In this document: piece by piece, positions 1 through 9,726 of the stretch | Layout: every line of letters starts with the position of its first letter | Position numbering within the stretch: position 1 is the first letter of the stretch | Source of the DNA: an uncultured archaeon | GTDB lineage: Archaea > Asgardarchaeota > Lokiarchaeia > Sigyniarchaeales > Promethearchaeaceae | Length of the DNA stretch: 9,726 nt | Assembly: GCA_964426185.1 (NCBI GenBank) | Contig: CAYRPF010000094.1 | Coordinates: forward strand, 1 to 9,726 | Direction of reading: 5' to 3' | Notes under the pieces: generated by a model | Seen by the model: the letters and a program-made list of their open reading frames with translations, nothing else | Databases searched by the model: none | What the model was told of the DNA's origin: nothing | Position numbers and translations under genes: made by a program

Positions 1-2
1 AT

Positions 3-143
3 ATCGAGGTATATGTGCGGATTTATGACGAAGAAACCATTCCATTCTTTGATAAATATCATGTGAAAACCTTTTCAACTTCCTCAAATGCATTTAAAAA
101 ATTGAGATCCAAGGTGGCTGAGAATTCTGCCATCCGTGAATGA
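3..143 (+). CDS. 3' end of a gene entering from the left edge (partial); possibly the C-terminus of an RCK/TrkA-N-type NAD-binding domain protein
   Basis: Frame 3 is open from the edge to TGA at 141-143 (IEVYVRIYDEETIPFFDKYHVKTFSTSSNAFKKLRSKVAENSAIRE*) and converges on the HAD gene stop 4 nt away. The VYVRIYD...TFSTS pattern loosely resembles the end of RCK domains; the product call is weak. Confidence 0.5.
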   Translation: MEVYVRIYDEETIPFFDKYHVKTFSTSSNAFKKLRSKVAENSAIRE

Positions 144-147
144 TTGA

Positions 148-834
148 TCATCTGAACAAGAGATCCAAAGGGATTTCTTCAAATTTTTTTACCACCAAAT
201 CTGCTTGATTAAGTTTTTTAGCTGGGAAAGATGTAGTTATAGCAACCGTGAAGGCTCCACTCGCTTTACCAGCAGACACCCCCGTTACCGAATCTTCAAT
301 GACTATGCATTCGTTGATGGGTATCTTAAGTCTTTCTGCTGCCAGAAGGAATATTTCTGGATGAGGTTTTCCATTTTTGATGCCATCGGCACTGATGATT
401 TGGGAGAAATAATCGGATAAACCAGTTTCCTTTAAATTAAATTGAATTTTTGCCAGAATTCCCGAGGAAGCTACGATAATGGGGATATTATGTTGAATCA
501 GCTTGGTAATAAATTCCTTTACTCCGGGAGTGGGTTTTAATTTCCCATGTGCGCTTTCTTGGTAGATTCTTTCTTTCATGGCGGCGATTTTGGGTAAAAT
601 ATCTGGGGTATATTCCAGTGAGTGCAATTTAAAGAATGATTCGACTACTTCCTTGGTTGTTTTTCCTAGAATATGACTGTAGTCAGTTCCAATGTCGATG
701 TTATATTCCCTTTCAAACAAAATATTCCATGCACCACAGCTTAATGCCTCTGAATCCACCAACACGCCGTCGCAGTCGAAAATGACCCCTTTATACCGTT
801 GAGGATGAGTTCTTAAAATTTTTTCGTTAATCAA
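148..834 (-). CDS. HAD-superfamily phosphatase, subfamily IA (beta-phosphoglucomutase/CbbY/YqaB-like)
   Basis: Motif I FDCDGVLVDS (DxD), motif II ASS, motif III KPHP, motif IV EDSVTG; 228 aa; TTG start 7 nt after the stop of the upstream methyltransferase. Confidence 0.93.
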   Translation of the reverse strand: MINEKILRTHPQRYKGVIFDCDGVLVDSEALSCGAWNILFEREYNIDIGTDYSHILGKTTKEVVESFFKLHSLEYTPDILPKIAAMKERIYQESAHGKLKPTPGVKEFITKLIQHNIPIIVASSGILAKIQFNLKETGLSDYFSQIISADGIKNGKPHPEIFLLAAERLKIPINECIVIEDSVTGVSAGKASGAFTVAITTSFPAKKLNQADLVVKKFEEIPLDLLFR

Positions 835-841
835 ATCAGAA

Positions 842-1912
842 TCACAACTTTGAAAAGTTATTACGGGGTTTTAAAATTTGTTTCCATACTCGAATTTGGT
901 ATTTTTCATTCCAAGAATTTTGAATAAGTGTTTGTTTCAACCTGATCAGAGTTAAATCTGAGAGAACCAGTTTGGAAATTTCAGGGTATTCAGCGCGAGG
1001 GCTTCTAAAAAAATCCACCAAGGGGAAGGGGTATTGAATTCCCGATACTGATACTTGGTGCTGTTTTTTCAAATTATGATGCATGCTCGAAATCAAAAGT
1101 GAACTTGTTCCGCTGAAAAGGTCTAAAACCCGCGCGTTAGGCACGAAAGTCCATTTTTCTAAAAGAAAACCGAGTAAATCTAACGGTTTGGGATTCAAGA
1201 AACGTATCCAATCCGCTTTATGAAGATCCGATTTAATTTTTTCACTAATTATGCCAAGTGTGTTAAATAACTCCTCCCGGGCTTTAATTGAACTATCAAA
1301 ACTATCCAAAATGGAACCACTTTGTTTAAACAATGCATGAGTTTTAGACTCTTTTATCACTTTTTTTAGAGATTTCAAGTTTTTGGCATAAATTAAAATA
1401 TATGTATGACTGTGAGTAAAAATTGCATTATCTTTAACACCTTCAAACGATTTCCAGATATAAGTGCCGATAAAATTATTCTCTCCAAGTATTAAATCTA
1501 ACATTAATCGTAGATAGGGGTGTTCTTTGTCATCACAGCAAAGCAGGATCACCCCGCGTTCTGGATTGAGGAGTTTAGAGCTGAAAAACAAGCGATTATA
1601 CATCATTTTTAGCCATTGCAAATGGGTACAACCGTTATACCAAATGGAAGATTTAGAAGAAGGATAGTCGTTAATTATTGCGTCTTTTCGGCTGTTATAG
1701 GGGGGATCAATGAATATTAAATCATACGGTTCAAGATTATCTTTTTTTAATAGAAATCGCAGAACTTCTAAATTATCCCCAATAAATAGGGAAAAATCTG
1801 GAGATCCCATCCCAATATTTAAATCAGGCCGGGGAGCAAAGGAAAATCTAGATTGGTTGAATAAATGCTGCTTAATTTGGGGGAGCTCTGCTAAAAATTT
1901 CGACCATATCAA
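842..1912 (-). CDS. Beta-class N6-adenine/N4-cytosine DNA methyltransferase, Type III Mod-like, short (no TRD)
   Basis: GDNLEVL, IFIDPPYN (motif IV, DPPY at aa 69-72), HxxWLxMMxxRL, DDxE...LMLD..LGENNF, HTYILIYAK, PKP (aa 241-243), VLDLFSGTS (motif I-like, aa 262-270). Motif IV precedes motif I, the beta order. TTG start. Confidence 0.88.
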   Translation of the reverse strand: MIWSKFLAELPQIKQHLFNQSRFSFAPRPDLNIGMGSPDFSLFIGDNLEVLRFLLKKDNLEPYDLIFIDPPYNSRKDAIINDYPSSKSSIWYNGCTHLQWLKMMYNRLFFSSKLLNPERGVILLCCDDKEHPYLRLMLDLILGENNFIGTYIWKSFEGVKDNAIFTHSHTYILIYAKNLKSLKKVIKESKTHALFKQSGSILDSFDSSIKAREELFNTLGIISEKIKSDLHKADWIRFLNPKPLDLLGFLLEKWTFVPNARVLDLFSGTSSLLISSMHHNLKKQHQVSVSGIQYPFPLVDFFRSPRAEYPEISKLVLSDLTLIRLKQTLIQNSWNEKYQIRVWKQILKPRNNFSKL

Positions 1913-2041
1913 TTAAATTCAAATGATATAATTACTCCGATTTTTAAAATGTATGTAGAATTTTCTGAAGATCAATTTCCCGAATTTGTTGATTATATTT
2001 GAGAATTTTCAAAAAGAAGTAATTATTATTTTAATTGAATT
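1913..2041. promoter_or_regulatory. Divergent promoter region with a mirrored AGTAATTAT element 24 nt upstream of both start codons
   Basis: AGTAATTAT at 2018-2026 (+) and its reverse complement at 1928-1936. Each lies at -24..-16 from its start codon (ATG 2042; TTG 1912). Confidence 0.45.
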
Positions 2042-3268
2042 ATGGTAAAGGAATTATTCTACGAAGATACCTATTTACGGGAACATAAGGCAAAAATAAC
2101 CGCTTGTGAGAAAATAGCTGATAAATATGGGGTTTCACTGGATGAAACAATTTTTTACCCTGAGGGAGGGGGTGAACCAGGCGATCGTGGATGGTTTGAT
2201 AAAATCGAAGTTGTTGATACTATTAAAAAAGAAGGCGAAATTTATCATCTCACAAAAAAACCCTTAAATCCAGGAGATTCAGTTAGTATCAAATTGGATT
2301 GGGCTTTTCGCTACGATTTAATGCAATTTCACACCTCCCAACACCTACTATCCAGTGTAATTTACGATTTATACAAAGGGAACACACTATCCGTTCACGT
2401 AGGCACCAAAAATGCTCATATAGATGTGGATCTACCTTCTTTGAATTGGGAAATGGTTCGTGAGATTGAATTGAAGGCAAATACATTAATTTATCAGAAT
2501 TTATCCGTAAAAACATACTGGATTAAGGATCAAAAAGAACTGGACAAGATTCCATTTCGCAGGGCGGTAAAAAAAAAGGCGGAAAAAGGTGTCCGTGTAG
2601 TTGAAATCGAGGGATTTGATTATTCTGCTTGTGGGGGTATGCATTTAAAAAAATTGGGTGAGATTGGTATCCTGAAGATCGTAAAGTGGACCAATATTAA
2701 AGAAGGAACCCAGATCGAATTTCTCTTCGGAAAAAGGGCATTATTGGATTATGAACAGAAAACCGAAATCCTTCAAAGATTAACCAATGCCCTTACCTGC
2801 CATGATCTTGAACTAGAAGCTAAGGTGTTAGCTTTCAAGCAAAACAATCAAAAAATGGAAAAGCAGATAAAAATGCTGAATGCCGAGTTAATGGAGTATA
2901 AAATTCCTAAAATTCTTGAAAATGCCACAATCATAGATGGTGTAAGGATTATTACTGATAATTTTGAAGATAAAGACCCTAAAGACATGAAATTAATACT
3001 TAATAAATTCATGGATATTCCTAATATAATCTGTCTTTTCACTGATTTTTTTCCCGATTCGAGTAAAATTTTGGTGTTTTTCGCCCATTCTCTTGAAAAA
3101 GGGAAAGATAAACTTCATATGGGCAATGTTTTAAAAAAAGTTCTTCCTCTAATCAATGGAAAAGGTGGCGGAAAACCACAATATGCACAAGGTGGAGGAA
3201 AAGGGAAAATTCCCGATAATTTCCTCCCCGAAGCAGTTAAAATAGTAATTGATGAATTAAAGAAATGA
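2042..3268 (+). CDS. alaX: Free-standing alanyl-tRNA editing protein, large form (AlaX-L/AlaXp with C-Ala/DHHA1 domain)
   Basis: N-terminal LFYED and FYPEGGGEPGDRG; Zn-binding HTSQH (HxxxH) and CGGMH (CxxxH); coiled segment; C-terminal GKGGGKPQYAQGGG (DHHA1). No aminoacylation domain; 408 aa. Confidence 0.92.
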   Translation: MVKELFYEDTYLREHKAKITACEKIADKYGVSLDETIFYPEGGGEPGDRGWFDKIEVVDTIKKEGEIYHLTKKPLNPGDSVSIKLDWAFRYDLMQFHTSQHLLSSVIYDLYKGNTLSVHVGTKNAHIDVDLPSLNWEMVREIELKANTLIYQNLSVKTYWIKDQKELDKIPFRRAVKKKAEKGVRVVEIEGFDYSACGGMHLKKLGEIGILKIVKWTNIKEGTQIEFLFGKRALLDYEQKTEILQRLTNALTCHDLELEAKVLAFKQNNQKMEKQIKMLNAELMEYKIPKILENATIIDGVRIITDNFEDKDPKDMKLILNKFMDIPNIICLFTDFFPDSSKILVFFAHSLEKGKDKLHMGNVLKKVLPLINGKGGGKPQYAQGGGKGKIPDNFLPEAVKIVIDELKK

Positions 3269-3302
3269 AACATTGTAATTTTTTCGTTTCATGTAATTTT
3301 TT
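3265..3302 (+). terminator. Putative alaX terminator: short inverted repeat plus duplicated T-tract
   Basis: ATGAAAC (3265-3271) pairs with GTTTCAT (3286-3292). TGTAATTTTTT occurs twice (3274-3284, 3292-3302). Lies between convergent genes. Confidence 0.45.
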
Positions 3303-3330
3303 ACTTATAGTTATATTTGAAAACTTCACC

Positions 3331-3353
3331 AGAGCAAAAGAGAGCAAAAAAAA
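3331..3353 (-). terminator. Putative oligo-T terminator for the FHA-M50 gene
   Basis: The minus strand reads TTTTTTTTGCTCTCTTTTGCTCT immediately after the TAA stop (AGAGCAAAA twice on +, 3331-3339 and 3341-3349). Confidence 0.45.
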
Positions 3354-4748
3354 TTAACTAACCTCTGGAGAACCCGTAAGAACGAAAACACCGGCATATC
3401 CTATAAGAAATGCAGCGAGCATCGTAAAATACAACTTTTTGCGCCAACCTAATATATATTTTCCGTCCATTGCAAAACCATGGAATTCTTTAGGTATAAG
3501 GTTAAATCCACCCAACATAAAATTAATTCCCGCGCTCTGCAAAAAGGTTGTTTTCAATAGTGGGCTGGTTTGGGGGATAACAACTGCAATAATAAAGGTA
3601 ATTAGCCCTATTATTAGATTAACTGCAGGACCGGCCATTTTAATTGCTCCCATTTTGTCTTTATCATGCTGAGGATCTACGCCTACAGAGACAGCAGCTC
3701 CTGGTAAACCAATAGGAATTCCTATAAGTGCAGCTAATACCGTTAACTTAATTCCCCTCTTTACCAGCAGAAATTTGGAAGGGTATTGGAAATATTTGCC
3801 TGTGTAAAGATGCCCCAACTCATGGCAGATAAAGGTAATGCAGAATACCAAAGCGGTAGGAAGTGGTGTGATTAAAACGTCCCTCCATGGTAAGCCCACC
3901 CCATATTGAAAATATGTAATGAGGGAAAAAATACCGAGAAAATTCACGTAGGTATGGTAAATCATTACGAAGAGTAATCCGAATGCGATGAGAATATGCC
4001 AAATTTCTTTCATTTCCAACTTATACACTATAGAAAAATCTAATCCGAGGTCCTGCGCAACCTTGGGATCAAAACAATTCTTAGGTATGGGTACTTTCTC
4101 TTGCACTACAATGAAACTGGTGGAAGTATCGGTAAAATCATAACCCATCGATTGTATTTCTGAATCCGGCCCGACCGTGGGAGTAAAGGTGGGATCAAAG
4201 TATTCGCCCCCAGATGGTGATATATTGACTTCTTGTTTGGCTTTGGCGCGTTTTTGGTGTTTCGGAGGTTCTGATTTATTATCAAAGAGAAATGGCTGTT
4301 CCACCCCCTCTTCTGGGGAAATAGTTAGGTTTTTATCTTGGATTTGTTGAGGGGTTTTTTCTTCTTTTTGAAATATAATTTCTAATTGGACTAATTTTCC
4401 TTTTCTTTCAAGCGGAACGATGATTTTATCCCCTGGATTTAATAATTGTATTCCTGTCTGCTTCAAATTTAAATTTCCAAGGTACGTTCCATTTGATGAA
4501 TTGCGATCTTCGATATAATATTGTTTTTTTGTGGAATTATATTGAATACTGAACTGTTCTTTGATAATTTCACCTTGATTATCGGTCCGGACTGAAGATA
4601 ACGTGGAAAATTCTTGGGGTTTAATTGGTACAGTAGCACAATTGATTATTTCACGTTTACCAATGTGATTTATTCCTACTGGAGATAAAAGTATTTTCCC
4701 CTTGATTTCGGGGATTGACAAATATGCACTTTTCATTAACAAATACAA
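3354..4748 (-). CDS. FHA domain fused through a long polar linker to a site-2 (M50) intramembrane zinc metalloprotease
   Basis: N-terminal FHA-like pattern IGK...YYIEDRNSSNGTYL...LNPGDKI (aa ~28-109); linker aa ~128-240; membrane domain with HELGH (aa 309-313), AGPAVN (372-377) and FNLIP...MDG (415-429). The real start may be ATG at 4736 rather than TTG at 4748. Confidence 0.88.
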   Translation of the reverse strand: MYLLMKSAYLSIPEIKGKILLSPVGINHIGKREIINCATVPIKPQEFSTLSSVRTDNQGEIIKEQFSIQYNSTKKQYYIEDRNSSNGTYLGNLNLKQTGIQLLNPGDKIIVPLERKGKLVQLEIIFQKEEKTPQQIQDKNLTISPEEGVEQPFLFDNKSEPPKHQKRAKAKQEVNISPSGGEYFDPTFTPTVGPDSEIQSMGYDFTDTSTSFIVVQEKVPIPKNCFDPKVAQDLGLDFSIVYKLEMKEIWHILIAFGLLFVMIYHTYVNFLGIFSLITYFQYGVGLPWRDVLITPLPTALVFCITFICHELGHLYTGKYFQYPSKFLLVKRGIKLTVLAALIGIPIGLPGAAVSVGVDPQHDKDKMGAIKMAGPAVNLIIGLITFIIAVVIPQTSPLLKTTFLQSAGINFMLGGFNLIPKEFHGFAMDGKYILGWRKKLYFTMLAAFLIGYAGVFVLTGSPEVS

Positions 4749-4802
4749 TGAGGGTAAATCGTAAAAAAGTTAACTTTTATGAAAAAATTGATACCCATCA
4801 TT
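4747..4802. repeat. Nested inverted repeat with a perfect 14-bp palindrome core
   Basis: AAAAGTTAACTTTT (4765-4778) is a perfect palindrome. It is flanked by AATGAGGGTA (4747-4756) and TACCCATCATT (4792-4802), which pair with a single bulge. Confidence 0.6.
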
Positions 4803-4808
4803 TATTAA

Positions 4809-5825
4809 TTAAATAAAACGAGAAATTGCATTGCGTCTTCCAAATTTTTTAAAGAAAAAGTATCCACCAGCCAGAGCGCATATTTGAGCAAATGATTCAA
4901 CTGCTGATTGAGAAAAGCCGGGATTGAAGATTCCTAAAACGATAAAAACCAAATCCATTAAAATAAGAAAGTAGAGTATGTATTTTCCCTTCATTTTAAT
5001 CGGAATAAAATATAAATACATTCTCATTTCTCGATTCAAGCCCACCATATATAGTATATAGCTGATCATTCCCAACAAAGCAGCCCATTGAACGGAAAAA
5101 AGACTCAATTGAAATCCAAGAGCATTAGCTTGTGGTAAAATGGGTAAAAAGGAGAAAATTGCCTGGAAAAATAAACCCCCAACAATTCCGAATAATCCGC
5201 ATCCTATATATAGATAGAGAATAAATCGGGTTCCAAATTGATTTTCCAACATTCTCCCTGTCCCGTAAAGGATTATCATAGTAAATATTAAGGAAAAAAC
5301 GTTTGTGGTCGTAAACATTGAAGTAAAGAGAGTCCAAATCCAAAAATTTCCAAATAAGGTTGAGACATTTAGAAATAAAACAGCTGACGAAACTCTAAAC
5401 AATCCTAAGATTAGTCCAGCTAATGAAAATAATCCATTTAAACCCATCAACCAATAGGTTCCTTTAGAACGGTGTGAACCGCCAAATAGAGATGAAGAAA
5501 AGCTTCGAATTCTGCTAGAATCTCTATTCGGAGGAGGAGGCATAGAGCTCCGCTCTTGATTGCGAATATAATCCCGCATTTCTCTATCCAATTGGCTTTC
5601 ATCATTTGAATAATTTGTATCAGAAGATGATGTTGTTTCTTCGTAATGAGAAGATTGAGAAATATCAATATTTTGAGAAAAAGAAGATTTTTTTTCCATT
5701 GTAAAAGGGCAATTGTGATTTTCAGGAAGTCTATGCTTCTTACAGAATGTTCCGCCACAGTAACGACATTTAAATGGCAAATATTCTATTACTTCATCAC
5801 AATCGGGAACGTCACACTTAACCAT
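4809..5825 (-). CDS. AN1-type zinc finger fused to a rhomboid-fold membrane domain; predicted catalytically inactive pseudoprotease
   Basis: C4-x4-C9-x10-C20-x2-C23-x4-C28-x2-H31-x5-H37-x-C39 matches AN1. A Ser/Pro-rich linker is followed by about 6 TM helices with rhomboid landmarks WTLFTSMF, LYGTGRMLENQFG, YIGCGLFG and YFIPIKMKGKY. GxSG is replaced by VQWA and AHxxG by AQICA. Confidence 0.85.
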   Translation of the reverse strand: MVKCDVPDCDEVIEYLPFKCRYCGGTFCKKHRLPENHNCPFTMEKKSSFSQNIDISQSSHYEETTSSSDTNYSNDESQLDREMRDYIRNQERSSMPPPPNRDSSRIRSFSSSLFGGSHRSKGTYWLMGLNGLFSLAGLILGLFRVSSAVLFLNVSTLFGNFWIWTLFTSMFTTTNVFSLIFTMIILYGTGRMLENQFGTRFILYLYIGCGLFGIVGGLFFQAIFSFLPILPQANALGFQLSLFSVQWAALLGMISYILYMVGLNREMRMYLYFIPIKMKGKYILYFLILMDLVFIVLGIFNPGFSQSAVESFAQICALAGGYFFFKKFGRRNAISRFI

Positions 5826-5900
5826 TTCAAAAGTATATAATAAACCATCTTCTTTATTTGTATGTATTTAAAAAAATATGAAAATGACATTTACCACTTA

Positions 5901-7931
5901 TTAGTGAACAATTTCTTGAATAAGCTGATTTATTGTATATTTATCTGGAGTTAGCACTCCTCTGAACGATTCATATATTTTATTGAAAAAGAATTGTTTG
6001 GCACTCTTAGATGATGGCGCAATTATCTTTGAATCTATAAGATGCCGTAAATATACCCTAATTCGATCTTGTAAAGGTATTTCCACCTTAGAAAGATGTA
6101 ATTGTGAAGTTAACCACCACTGTCTTTGAGAATTTATCTTGAAATCGGGATCTACCATTAAATCATGTACACATTCTTCAAAATTGGGTAAAGGAAATAA
6201 AAATTCTCGGTATAAAAATTCATCAATTAAATTTGTGATCCAAATAAAATATGTGGGCTCCCCTCTTTTTTGCAGAATCTCAATAATTAACTCTTTGATC
6301 TTAGTTTTTTGTTTTTGATAAGAAGTTGTAGCAATTTTTTTTTTATAAATTGAGTAATAAGGTTGGGAATTAGAAGATAGTTTTTGAAACCGTAAAAAAT
6401 AATCTCCAATTGGGGATCCTTCATGATGCAGCATTGATTTTAGTGAAGCACGGGCAGGTAACTGAAAAAGAATCTGTTTTAACTCAAACCCGCTCTTAAG
6501 AATGGATAAAACTAAAGCATTCCGAATCTTGGTAGAAGTATTATGAAAAGTTAACACCATATATTTATCCGGTTTTAATACGCGATATAAAACGGAGAAA
6601 GCTTCCCGTAATAAACTCTGGTAGCGTTGTAGATTTTTATTCTGGTTGGAATTAATAACTATTTCATCGCAACTAATGCTTGAAAGATAGGAATTCATAT
6701 CATATCCCAACCAATTTGCCCATAATGCACTTAATTCACCGTATTGAATTGAGTCTCCATAAGGAGGGTCTGTAAATATGAAATCAACAGAATTTTCAGG
6801 TAAACTACACTTGGTGATCGATTGGGTCAATAAATAAACAGGAAAATCCTTAGAATTAAAAAATATGTCAAGATTGGGAGCGGGTTGAAAGGGAATTTGA
6901 CACATTGAATTTCGACTGTTTGATTCCTTTTTACCTCGAAGCACTTTTTGATATCTGAATTTGAAGCAATTCCATGCATTAACCTCAAAGAATTTATGAG
7001 GATTCCAAAAGAAATGATGAGTCCAAGAACCAACCTGTTTTTGCGTTAATTCTCGCCCACGACGTTTATCAATCACCCAAACCATCCGACTTGCTTGACT
7101 TATGGAACTAGAAAATGTAAAAAGCATCAAATCTCGAATAGAATTAAATTTTGAAGGCAGATTCATTATTTTTTCTCTCAACCAAGTTAAAAAAATCAGA
7201 GCTCGTGGGGAGAAAAGTTCCGACATCGCGTTGTTGTTTCGTAACGAATGCCTTAATTGGAGAAAAGGTGTCTTATTAGAATATTGAAGATGAAACTTAA
7301 GAAATCGAAGGTCATTTACAGAGAGATCTTGTTGAAAACGTTCATTTTGTGAGCAAATATTGAGATTTATTCGCTCAAAATCAGCATCTTCTGGCAGAAT
7401 TTTTACTGATCCGCAATTTGGACAAAATAAGCGAATTTCAAGAAGTTGATAAATTGAGTTTGTATCAGGAGAAAGAACTTGTTTTGATGATTGGGTGGAA
7501 TTATGCCATATCAAATGGGTAATTTCTGCATTTTCTTGGCAGTAAGGGCATGATTGATAATATAATTGTGAATATAATGAAGGTTTTCGAAAAACTTGGT
7601 TTTCTATCCATTGAAAACCCTCTTGATATAATGATATATCAGCAAATTTCCCAGTATTAGCGCAGATAAAAGAAGAAATTGGATTTATATCTATGCCTAC
7701 CGCTTTTCGATCATTGAACACAGCTTCTAATACTGTAACTCCCGATCCCATGAATGGATCTAATATAATATCTCCTGGAGCAGAATACTTTAGAATATAA
7801 TGCCGAATTATATTTGCTGGTTTCCGTGCCCAAAATTTATGCATCAAATACATTGGGGAATGAGTCTCGGGAAGAAGAACATAATCTAAGGAGATATTTC
7901 TAGGTATTTTGCTCATCTTCTTCTTTTTCAC
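5901..7931 (-). CDS. Adenine-specific DNA methyltransferase with Zn-ribbon insertion (COG1743-like), orphan within this window
   Basis: HKFWARKP, ILDPFMGSGVT (motif I), GIDINP (motif II), CPYC (aa 128-131) and CPNC (aa 170-173), IFTDPPYGD (motif IV, DPPY at aa 388-391), RVLKPDKYMVLTFHN. GTG start at 7931 or ATG at 7916. Confidence 0.88.
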   Translation of the reverse strand: MKKKKMSKIPRNISLDYVLLPETHSPMYLMHKFWARKPANIIRHYILKYSAPGDIILDPFMGSGVTVLEAVFNDRKAVGIDINPISSFICANTGKFADISLYQEGFQWIENQVFRKPSLYSQLYYQSCPYCQENAEITHLIWHNSTQSSKQVLSPDTNSIYQLLEIRLFCPNCGSVKILPEDADFERINLNICSQNERFQQDLSVNDLRFLKFHLQYSNKTPFLQLRHSLRNNNAMSELFSPRALIFLTWLREKIMNLPSKFNSIRDLMLFTFSSSISQASRMVWVIDKRRGRELTQKQVGSWTHHFFWNPHKFFEVNAWNCFKFRYQKVLRGKKESNSRNSMCQIPFQPAPNLDIFFNSKDFPVYLLTQSITKCSLPENSVDFIFTDPPYGDSIQYGELSALWANWLGYDMNSYLSSISCDEIVINSNQNKNLQRYQSLLREAFSVLYRVLKPDKYMVLTFHNTSTKIRNALVLSILKSGFELKQILFQLPARASLKSMLHHEGSPIGDYFLRFQKLSSNSQPYYSIYKKKIATTSYQKQKTKIKELIIEILQKRGEPTYFIWITNLIDEFLYREFLFPLPNFEECVHDLMVDPDFKINSQRQWWLTSQLHLSKVEIPLQDRIRVYLRHLIDSKIIAPSSKSAKQFFFNKIYESFRGVLTPDKYTINQLIQEIVH

Positions 7932-8023
7932 ACCGGAAAAATTCCATATATTTACTAGTAGATAAAAAACATAGTTCTTGAGGAATCAAAAAGTTTTTCA
8001 TTTAGGTTAGCTTAATTTAATAT

Positions 8024-8458
8024 ATGAGCAGCTCTACCGCGGCGCGGGAATTCAATAAGCAAATTGCCAGTGCTTTACAATCTATGGTTAAAGTTATTCT
8101 TGAGCATGAATATCCCATGCATTATTATACCGGAAGGTTGGTTGGAATTGATATGGGACATACTATTTGCTTAGAAAATGCCCGTAATGAAAAAAAACGT
8201 AAATTAGGAACAATTTTTATTCATGGTGATAAATGGGTTTCATTTACAATTGAAGGAGAACCCTTCCCGATGGAAGAATTGGCAGCACGATTACGAAAAG
8301 TCTTACCTGGAGAAGCCATTCGTATTAGTGACGATAATTCAATTAGTATTCTCGGTGGAAAGGTAGTTATCACGGAAAAGGGTGTGGAAGGTCGAGGTCC
8401 CACAGCTGAACGAATTCAAAAAGTATTTGATTCTTTTGTTAGTGAAAGGCACCATTGA
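8024..8458 (+). CDS. Sm-like archaeal RNA-binding protein with C-terminal extension (SmAP3/Lsm_C type)
   Basis: N-terminal helix, VKV, YTGRLVGID...ICLENA (Sm1-like), IFIHG (Sm2-like), then a ~65-aa C-terminal domain PF..EELAARL...VVITEKGVEGRGPTAERIQKVFDSF, as in SmAP3; 144 aa. Confidence 0.85.
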   Translation: MSSSTAAREFNKQIASALQSMVKVILEHEYPMHYYTGRLVGIDMGHTICLENARNEKKRKLGTIFIHGDKWVSFTIEGEPFPMEELAARLRKVLPGEAIRISDDNSISILGGKVVITEKGVEGRGPTAERIQKVFDSFVSERHH

Positions 8459-8478
8459 TGGACCCCACCATTGATGGA
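8450..8478 (+). repeat. Tandem 13-bp direct repeat that also folds as a hairpin, followed by a T-rich tract (probable terminator)
   Basis: CACCATTGATGGA at 8450-8462 and 8466-8478. In RNA, 8452-8461 pairs with 8468-8477 (10 bp with two G-U pairs, loop ACCCCA). TTATTTTATTTTATTT follows. Confidence 0.65.
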
Positions 8479-8581
8479 TTATTTTATTTTATTTACTCTT
8501 CTTTTATTCTATCTATCTATACTCTTTAAAAAACAAAAAATATTTAATTTCTCAAGGTAAAGATCATTGGGGAAAAAAGAT

Positions 8582-9726
8582 ATGGATACTGAAATTGTAA
8601 AGAAAAAACATCAAGAAATTTTCAATAGTAAACCCGAGATTATAGTTTTTGCTCCTGGACGAGTAAATTTGATTGGAGAACATACTGATTATTCCGAAGG
8701 CTTTGTCTTACCAATTGCGATTGATATGGGTATTACGGTAGCACTTTCAATAATTCCTGATTCTGAGGTTGTTGCGGTTTACTCTATTGATTACGATAAA
8801 AAGATCGTTGCGATGTATAGCGATTTTAATAGAAGTCAAGAAACATGGTTTAACTATCCAATGGGAGTTGCCAAGATCTTGAAAAATCAAGGCTATAATA
8901 TTGGCGGTCTTCGCATAACTTTTACAGGAAATATACCCCAAGGAGCTGGATTATCTTCATCGGCCGCTTTAGAAGCAGCTGTAGCTTTAGGTATTAAAAA
9001 TCTATTTAATTTAGATATTTCTAGAAAAGATCTCGCTAAAATTTGCCAAAAAGCGGAGCATGAAATTATTGGGGTTCAATGTGGCATAATGGATCAGTAT
9101 ATCTCACTTCTAGCGGAAAAGGATAAATATATGTTTCTGGATTGTCGTTCGTTAGATTACGAGATGATTCCTTGTGATTTTTCACCCTATCATTTGATTA
9201 TTACGAATTCTAATGTTCCACATAAATTATCTCAGTCAAAATATAACGAACGGGTTAGTGAATGCATGGAAGCGGTAAAAATAATGGCTAACGATGACTC
9301 CAAAAAAACTCTGCGGGACTTTACCATGGAAGAATTTGAAAAAATGAAAATCCACTTACCGCCCAACAATCAGAAGAGGGCACTGCATGTCATTTCAGAA
9401 AATGAACGCGTATTAAAAGCCAAGAAAGCGCTATCTTCTGGTGATTTAGAAGCATTCGGCACTCTGTTAATCGAATCTCATGCCAGTTTACGGGATAATT
9501 ATGAAGTAAGTTGTCCAGAATTAGATTGGCTGGTGGAATCAGCAATTACAATTAAAGGATGTGTTGGATCTCGTATGACAGGTGCTGGTTTTGGGGGATG
9601 TACGATAGGTCTGTTTTCGGATTCTGCATTAATTGAATATAAAAAAAAACTGCAGGATTATGAAACAAAATTTGGTTATCGTGCCGTTATATATGAATCA
9701 TCTCCTCAACAAGGAGCACGAAAGAT
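8582..9726 (+). CDS. galK: Galactokinase (GHMP kinase), nearly complete, truncated by the window edge
   Basis: ATG at 8582 gives MDTEIVKKKHQEIF...APGRVNLIGEHTDY (galactokinase signature). IPQGAGLSSSAA (GHMP ATP loop), CGIMDQ and SRMTGAGFGGC are all in the same frame. 381 full codons with no stop before the edge, so the ORF track missed it. Confidence 0.96.
   Translation, partial: MDTEIVKKKHQEIFNSKPEIIVFAPGRVNLIGEHTDYSEGFVLPIAIDMGITVALSIIPDSEVVAVYSIDYDKKIVAMYSDFNRSQETWFNYPMGVAKILKNQGYNIGGLRITFTGNIPQGAGLSSSAALEAAVALGIKNLFNLDISRKDLAKICQKAEHEIIGVQCGIMDQYISLLAEKDKYMFLDCRSLDYEMIPCDFSPYHLIITNSNVPHKLSQSKYNERVSECMEAVKIMANDDSKKTLRDFTMEEFEKMKIHLPPNNQKRALHVISENERVLKAKKALSSGDLEAFGTLLIESHASLRDNYEVSCPELDWLVESAITIKGCVGSRMTGAGFGGCTIGLFSDSALIEYKKKLQDYETKFGYRAVIYESSPQQGARK

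Follow-up and report, generated by a model that had tools for sequence, protein, structure and literature searches.

The window analysed here is a stretch of 9,726 nucleotides (34% G+C) from an uncultured archaeon (Lokiarchaeia; Sigyniarchaeales; Promethearchaeaceae), and corresponds to positions 1–9,726 of the forward strand of contig CAYRPF010000094.1 in assembly GCA_964426185.1. It carries a gene for a 338-amino-acid (aa) protein in which an AN1 zinc finger is followed by a linker and by a membrane domain that has the fold of the rhomboid proteases and has lost their entire catalytic set; we call this protein, and the family to which it belongs, the AN1-pseudorhomboid. A preliminary description had already read it as a dead rhomboid carrying an AN1 finger, and all its residue and codon assignments, as well as the intact open reading frame (ORF), were correct on re-reading. 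The gene and the parts of it discussed below are as follows (TM, transmembrane helix; HMM, hidden Markov model; pLDDT, predicted local distance difference test).

4809–5825, (–): AN1-pseudorhomboid gene (P0001), 338 aa; AN1 finger, linker and rhomboid-fold domain (ORF and translation, Pfam, orthologues of 69–26% identity)
5703–5816, (–): AN1 zinc finger, residues 4–41; Pfam zf-AN1 at 9.5e-14, 8 of 8 zinc ligands
5526–5603, (–): linker helix REMRDYIRNQER, then MPPPP, residues ~75–100; cytosolic, conserved, helix predicted for residues 75–94
4812–5474, (–): six-helix rhomboid-fold membrane domain, residues 118–338; pLDDT >90, Z 17.4 to GlpG, Pfam Rhomboid
5280–5294, (–): TM2 segment in place of HxxxN, from S178 (5292–5294) to T182 (5280–5282)
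5244–5246, (–): E194, counterpart of the structural residue E166 of GlpG; Glu in 120 of 121 relatives
5082–5093, (–): VQWA in TM4 instead of GxSG, with W247 (5085–5087) at the nucleophile position
4884–4886, (–): Q314 in place of the catalytic His of TM6, by HMM column mapping to GlpG H254

An AN1 finger on a rhomboid fold

The ORF is uninterrupted and begins with an ATG, and the N-terminus that it encodes, MVKC, is common to the orthologues. The finger belongs to the zf-AN1 family (PF01428), with a score of 51.7 bits for a Pfam cut-off of 27.9. Its zinc ligands, C4, C9, C20, C23, C28, H31, H37 and C39, are all kept, as the preliminary description had it and as both Pfam and the alignment confirm, and they are invariant or near-invariant among 110 relatives. 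A genome-wide profile match identifies this finger as the sole AN1 domain of the window's genome. It matches solved AN1 fingers, those of Cuz1 (E 9.8e-6) and ZFAND1 (E 8.4e-5) being the best, and the comparison with the Cuz1 structure gives a root-mean-square deviation (rmsd) of 1.2 Å over 38 residues.

The helix in the linker is basic, and its motif is kept throughout the clade of the window protein, its counterpart in the sister clade, which has Asp or Glu at the old His position (see below), being KKYLKRQE. It is not present in active AN1-rhomboids or in paralogues of ~290 aa. No Ala-Ala core of the VCP-interacting motif (VIM) was seen in this helix, which matched no known motif or partner.

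The AlphaFold2 model of the protein has a mean pLDDT of 86, rising above 90 throughout the membrane domain, and shows six helices, a loop 1 of ~30 residues and, after TM6, a tail of ~12 residues that is poorly conserved across the family. It superposes on GlpG with a Z of 17.4 (rmsd 3.1 Å, 167 residues), so that the rhomboid fold put forward in the preliminary description is borne out; Z is 17.0 for iRhom1, 12.7 for Derlin-1 and ~10 for Der1. Pfam Rhomboid (PF01694) matches residues 163–324 (E 4.8e-9, 37 bits for a cut-off of 22.6) and also matches 59 of the 110 relatives. A match to TMEM115/DUF1751 (PF08551; 21.6 bits for a cut-off of 22, in 10 of the 110 relatives) was rejected as a link to eukaryotes: it also occurs in ordinary clusters of bacterial rhomboids and is thus non-specific. 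NCBIfam holds no family model matching the AN1-pseudorhomboid or either form of the neighbouring M50 protease presented below.

Loss of the whole catalytic set

The catalytic positions could be located in two ways. When the family profile is compared with Escherichia coli GlpG, S178 falls on H150, T182 on N154, E194 on E166 and Q314 on H254; and when 17 canonical Asgard rhomboids are placed on the same HMM, their H/N pair, their GASG and their His fall in the S178/T182, V245–A248 and Q314 columns, respectively. T173, which the preliminary description had placed at the loop-1 His position, is indeed Thr. The only histidines of the 338-aa protein are at positions 31, 37, 60 and 118, so that none lies after residue 118 and a Ser–His dyad is impossible, as that description had argued. 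The TM4 Ser, the TM6 His and the TM2 HxxxN that mark an active rhomboid (MEROPS S54) are thus all missing.

The replacements vary across the family. F or S, and M, L or T, occupy the S178 and T182 columns; column 247 holds W, N, T, S, G or M, with no conserved residue; and column 314 holds D, Q, E, S, N, T and others, with Q in the clade of the window protein and D or E in the sister clade. The 121-row alignment includes two canonical active proteins, one of which has His at column 314. The structural residues E194 and G198, of the Glu/Gly motif of TM2–TM3, and G252 and P275 are retained in the family, together with the small-residue motif of TM6: the G198 column and column 317 are at least 90% Gly, and the window protein has A317 and G321, a motif of the GxxxG type. 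Judged by its residues, the AN1-pseudorhomboid is unable to cut, and the label 'rhomboid family intramembrane serine protease', under which many of its members stand in public annotations, is wrong.

A bounded family maintained by selection

The closest relatives of the window protein come from other Lokiarchaeia Asgard archaea: a metagenome-assembled genome of Candidatus Harpocratesius (69% identity), Lokiarchaeum ossiferum (45%) and Promethearchaeum syntrophicum (42%). HxxxN, the Ser–His pair and the TM6 His are absent from 119 of the 121 aligned relatives, the other two (P0117 and P0121, 267 aa) being canonical active AN1-rhomboids. When the profile of the membrane domain was compared with 1.84 billion representative proteins, 62 clusters matched at E ≤1e-30, and all matches down to ~E 1e-25 lacked the dyad and, if full length, carried the AN1 finger; weaker ones were canonical rhomboids with HN, GASG and H and without AN1. 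As the matches switch type at this value, the family, which comprises ~70 clusters in this set, all without the dyad, is sharply bounded.

In a FastTree phylogeny a single branch (support 93) separates 118 dead proteins from 20 canonical rhomboids. The dead proteins fall into two clades. The first, of 44 rows, contains the window protein and has Q, S or N where the TM6 His used to be; the second, of 74 rows (support 99), has D or E at this site, and in it some members keep the Ser, in LASG, where others have Thr or Trp. The ratio of nonsynonymous to synonymous substitution (dN/dS) relative to the Harpocratesius orthologue is 0.18 for the whole protein, 0.05 for the AN1 finger, 0.50 for the linker and 0.15 for the membrane domain, values that are rough because dS is ~1.3; of the three regions, the finger is under the tightest constraint. 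The frame stays open in over 100 lineages, with identities as low as 26%. Because the loss of the dyad is family-wide and confined to a single clade, and because dN/dS is well below 1, we conclude that the dead rhomboid is kept by purifying selection, as the preliminary description had proposed to check; close orthologues that retain GxSG and His beside a neutrally decaying copy, which it had named as the contrary outcome, were not seen, the whole family being without the dyad. The protein is, with high confidence, a selected, non-catalytic rhomboid-fold membrane protein bearing a cytosolic AN1 finger.

Active AN1-rhomboids have a finger that is 71% identical to that of the window protein, which points to descent from such an enzyme. 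The ancestor would have been an active AN1-rhomboid in which HxxxN, Ser and His were lost at the base of the family, the finger and the six-helix fold then being retained under purifying selection. Elsewhere, the window's genome also encodes a canonical rhomboid, in which HxxxN, GSSG and AHIFG are all present.

The distribution of the family was surveyed in 201 Asgard genomes drawn from 27 families. Full-length strong matches were confined to the order of the window, in families f1 and f2, where they were found in 44 of 44 genomes. The weaker matches fetched from other families were either proteins that carry an AN1 finger on an M50 protease (AN1-M50, 20 of 20 loci) or, at 16 loci, canonical rhomboids lacking AN1, and a presence of the family across all Asgard archaea was accordingly rejected. 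The AN1-pseudorhomboid family is discrete and, among the genomes searched, is found in one order of Lokiarchaeia. Some relatives from metagenome bins are labelled Heimdall- or Hermodarchaeota at NCBI, labels that are unconfirmed. Genomes of the sister family have 2–6 matches each, among them extra AN1-pseudorhomboid paralogues of ~288–307 aa (L059–L062) with no M50 neighbour. At another locus (L079:2972–4909) two dead AN1-rhomboids of 321 and 302 aa stand in tandem right after an AN1-M50 gene.

A site-2 protease next door

The gene that follows the AN1-pseudorhomboid in the window encodes a site-2 protease (S2P) of family M50 with an N-terminal FHA domain (FHA-M50). The other features of the window are listed with it.

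3354–4748, (–): FHA-M50 (site-2 protease) gene; HELGH at 3810–3824, Asp of the DG motif at 3465–3467; Pfam FHA and Peptidase_M50
4737–4808, (–): A/T-rich spacer of 72 nt between pseudorhomboid and M50, with two T6 runs (sequence read)
2042–3268, (+): AlaX-like protein (tRNA_SAD and DHHA1), part of the order-wide syntenic block
8024–8458, (+): Lsm_C-domain protein, part of the same block
8567–9724, (+): galactokinase-like GHMP kinase, part of the same block

The start of FHA-M50 was set at the ATG at 4736 by comparison with homologues. HExxH and N..P..DG are invariant in 38 M50 homologues, and the solved relative of FHA-M50 is MjS2P (3b4r). In the FHA-M50 clade the N..P..DG motif contains a 4-residue insertion (KEF.GFA.DG).

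The main copy of the AN1-pseudorhomboid gene adjoins an intact M50 gene on the same strand at 32 of the 33 assessable loci. At 6 of 7 assessable loci in the clade of the window protein, the gene that directly follows on the same strand is FHA-M50, and the order methyltransferase, pseudorhomboid, FHA-M50 is found in the window, in Harpocratesius, L. ossiferum and P. syntrophicum and in two more metagenomic lineages. In the sister family the order is AN1-M50, AN1-pseudorhomboid, cobW/HypB-like gene, with the same-strand M50 directly upstream at all 26 loci with enough flank; AN1-M50 also precedes the AN1-pseudorhomboid in L008, L079 and L081. The two genes remain co-oriented neighbours despite this swap in order, the swap of AN1 and FHA domains and the change of flanking genes. 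The N-terminal domain of the M50 protein is FHA in the window's clade and AN1 both in the sister family and at 20 loci of other Asgard families; the domain assignments indicate that the cytosolic domain is swapped on a conserved protease core. The AN1-M50 proteins of the other families (L039–L058, ~285–340 aa) are widespread among Asgard families, have no rhomboid-like neighbour within 3.5 kb and share a conserved juxtamembrane motif, RGTTDG..TWYRQE..IP.NAFDP.

Several genes around the pair are themselves conserved in place. Two genes of the N6_N4 DNA-methylase family (842–1912, (–), 356 aa, and 5901–7931, (–), 676 aa) flank it; both hold the same places on the Harpocratesius contig, and the larger precedes the pseudorhomboid at 6 of 6 loci of the window's clade. 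Gene orientations within the syntenic block vary between clades. At L010–L038 the gene 3' of the pseudorhomboid encodes a conserved cobW/HypB-like GTPase of ~218 aa, of the metal-chaperone type; its position beside two zinc-dependent proteins may be a coincidence.

A possible role beside the protease

The adjacent site-2 protease, which the preliminary description had not considered, appears from the gene order to be the best-supported partner of the AN1-pseudorhomboid. Our leading explanation, which we hold tentatively, is that the protein is a conserved pseudoprotease acting as a client-binding adaptor, gate or regulator of this protease. The rhomboid fold would bind or destabilise transmembrane segments; the pseudorhomboid would then serve the adjacent M50 protein as client receptor, gate or regulator; and the cytosolic N-terminal domains, AN1 on the pseudorhomboid and FHA or AN1 on the protease, would be modules for input or recruitment. 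Client binding, a physical or functional coupling to the protease and a ligand for the AN1 finger are what we infer here, in contrast to the fold, the complete catalytic loss, the conservation across the family, its clades and the adjacency of the genes, which are shown. Docking of the FHA domain on a phospho-Thr, either at the invariant T123 or within the linker, which is rich in Ser and Thr, was considered as a candidate and not adopted; T123 is just as invariant where the M50 protein carries AN1 instead of FHA. A more elaborate version, in which a two-part machine for intramembrane proteolysis arose in Lokiarchaeia, with the dead rhomboid as receptor or gate of the S2P by the logic of iRhom and ADAM17 but of independent origin, and the AN1 finger docks the cleaved or extracted client onto Cdc48, PAN or the proteasome, as a prokaryotic route for degrading membrane proteins in the manner of endoplasmic-reticulum-associated degradation (ERAD), seems improbable.

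Several observations weigh against a link with the protease. The wider block (AdoMet synthetase, cobW/HypB-like, Lsm_C, galactokinase and methyltransferase genes) is also syntenic across the order, so that the adjacency of pseudorhomboid and M50 may in part reflect a gene order that was inherited, instead of selection for coupling. A mirror-tree comparison over 22 loci, with the HypB-like gene as control, revealed no excess co-evolution (r = 0.61 for the rhomboid-like protein and M50, 0.66 for M50 and the HypB-like protein). The extra paralogues of the sister family have no M50 neighbour. In the same genus, a copy that is 50% identical to the window protein (L037, G089:C156) is followed by 874 nt with neither FHA-M50 nor any same-strand open frame. 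AN1-M50 stands alone, with no rhomboid-like neighbour, at the 20 loci of other Asgard families, and the protease therefore does not need a rhomboid-like partner. Finally, the T-runs of the 72-nt spacer could terminate transcription. Upstream of the L037 copy lies a 473-aa ORF that is not a methyltransferase, and this locus may be rearranged or misassembled. Co-folding of residues 115–338 with M50 residues 205–464, from separate alignments, gave a score of 0.00, which counts neither way on binding.

Other readings of the protein

The preliminary description had favoured an ERAD-like adaptor that passes clients to Cdc48, PAN or the proteasome. As a derlin-like dislocation adaptor, with or without the S2P, the protein would use its fold to thin the membrane and engage misfolded clients, and its AN1 finger to recruit Cdc48, PAN or the 20S proteasome. 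A rhomboid fold without catalysis is what derlins have; the AN1 finger is nearest to those of Cuz1 and ZFAND1, is the most constrained region of the protein and is the only one of its genome; and the basic helix conserved in the cytosolic linker might serve for docking. Cuz1 and ZFAND1 associate with Cdc48/p97 and the proteasome, and Dfm1 and Derlin-1/2 possess an SHP box for Cdc48/p97. In addition, Cuz1/Ynl155w was placed within an ERAD subnetwork (PMC2691004). However, the sequence, structure and phyletic-range tests gave this proposal no support. Pfam DER1 (PF04511) matches none of 110 members at E ≤0.01, and gives no match at E ≤10 for the window protein; against the family profile, Derlin-1 reaches E 1.6 and GlpG 2.9e-5; and Z drops from 17 for GlpG to 12.7 for Derlin-1 and 10 for Der1. 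The WR motif of derlins, in loop 1, reads W164–T165, the Arg column being Thr in 88 of 121 proteins, the C-terminal tail has no SHP box (no FxGxGQR-like motif) and the helix of the linker is without the Ala-Ala core of a VIM. No Cdc48, PAN or proteasome gene is adjacent at any locus read. Moreover, full-length members are confined to one order among the 201 Asgard genomes, a range that argues against ancestry of the eukaryotic derlins. We regard a derlin-like role as unlikely.

About equally likely is a stand-alone membrane chaperone, holdase or decoy, which would bind, shield, sort or sequester transmembrane clients, perhaps those of the canonical rhomboid, without handing them over to the S2P. 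Drosophila iRhom and yeast Dfm1 have chaperone roles of this kind. An active rhomboid is encoded elsewhere in the genome, paralogues without an M50 neighbour exist, and the mirror-tree shows no special co-evolution with M50. The membrane domain also evolves at about twice the rate of its neighbours, M50 and the HypB-like protein (mean distance 0.95, as compared with 0.41 and 0.36), as expected of a binder with changing clients. Nevertheless, this proposal leaves unexplained why the co-oriented adjacency to M50 has come through rearrangements at 32 of 33 loci, and why AN1 is found on both genes of the pair in the sister family.

That the protein is still an enzyme, through S244 or, in the sister clade, through a Ser or Thr paired with the TM6 Asp, is very improbable. 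Some members of that clade do combine LASG, with Ser in the nucleophile column, and Asp or Glu in TM6, and the old His position is usually polar, but none of the candidate residues is conserved, the nucleophile site of the window protein is occupied by Trp and its last His is at residue 118, and HxxxN, which would contribute to the oxyanion site, is lost in all members. S244, which the preliminary description had named as an alternative nucleophile, was rejected, its column being mostly Gly (G in 69 proteins, S in 37). As for a recently inactivated rhomboid in neutral drift, the dN/dS of 0.50 in the linker and a membrane domain that outpaces its neighbours are all that speak for it, and it is excluded by the conservation data, namely frames intact in more than 100 lineages, dN/dS of 0.15 and 0.05 in the membrane domain and the finger, invariant structural residues and a confident structure prediction.

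In the literature we found no description of a dead Asgard AN1-rhomboid family or of its pairing with an S2P, a passing mention in rhomboid surveys being possible, and an article on derlins and Asgard archaea (PMC13328587) does not describe the family. The AN1-pseudorhomboid is a clean, conserved prokaryotic rhomboid pseudoprotease in the archaeal phylum nearest to eukaryotes. To our knowledge, work on rhomboid pseudoproteases (derlins, iRhoms and UBAC2/Dsc2) has been almost confined to eukaryotes, in which these proteins pass membrane clients on to other enzymes. Cultured hosts exist (P. syntrophicum and L. ossiferum) and the candidate partner enzyme is obvious, which makes this a simple system for asking what the rhomboid fold does once catalysis is lost, and allows one to test whether the AN1 finger served degradation machinery before eukaryotes. 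Since the evidence argues against derlin ancestry, its value lies in mechanism and convergence and not in eukaryogenesis.

Comparison with known systems

The fusion of AN1 to a rhomboid is known from RhoII of Haloferax volcanii, in haloarchaea (PMC4343526). RhoII and the other active archaeal AN1-rhomboids (P0117 and P0121) likewise consist of an N-terminal AN1 finger and a six-helix core, and are likely to represent the ancestral form. They keep HxxxN, GxSG and the TM6 His, whereas the AN1-pseudorhomboid family has lost all three and, unlike them, contains a conserved basic helix, in a linker that is longer than theirs, and is tied to an M50 gene. For the AN1 finger itself, Cuz1 and ZFAND1 are the best matches in both sequence and structure; these, however, are soluble proteins with Ubl domains, and the likeness spans ~40 residues and is no proof of a shared partner.

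Rhomboid pseudoproteases are a known kind of protein (PMC12615303), and the preliminary description had likened the window protein to two of them, derlins and iRhoms. The part of that claim that made it a dead AN1-rhomboid stands; the likeness to derlins and iRhoms found no support, in the absence of a DER1 match, of the SHP box and WR Arg, and of the iRhom homology domain. With Der1, Dfm1 and Derlin-1 the protein shares the six-helix fold, the lack of catalytic residues and the small-residue motif of TM6, and a role with membrane clients is plausible; it differs from them in having no significant sequence match, no WR Arg and no SHP box, and no E3 ligase or Cdc48 link was found.

YqgP of Bacillus subtilis is a rhomboid that acts as adaptor of the FtsH protease (PMC7231995). 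Its cytosolic N-terminal domain and its membrane core hand clients over to another membrane protease, which is metal-dependent, and this adaptor role is separable from catalysis; the difference is that YqgP is active and partners an AAA+ protease, whereas the AN1-pseudorhomboid is inactive and its candidate partner is an ATP-independent S2P.

The iRhoms (RHBDF1/2), which partner the metalloprotease ADAM17, are recognised by a Pro before the dead Ser (GPxG), by a seventh helix and by the large iRhom homology domain that separates TM1 from TM2. The AN1-pseudorhomboid has none of these marks and carries a different cytosolic domain, and its putative partner is an intramembrane M50 and not an ADAM sheddase. 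Its origin, within one Asgard order, looks independent. It has in common with them a rhomboid fold free of catalysis, its Z to iRhom1 being as high as that to GlpG, and, if the link to the S2P holds, it would follow the same logic as iRhom and ADAM17, in which a dead rhomboid serves a metalloprotease.

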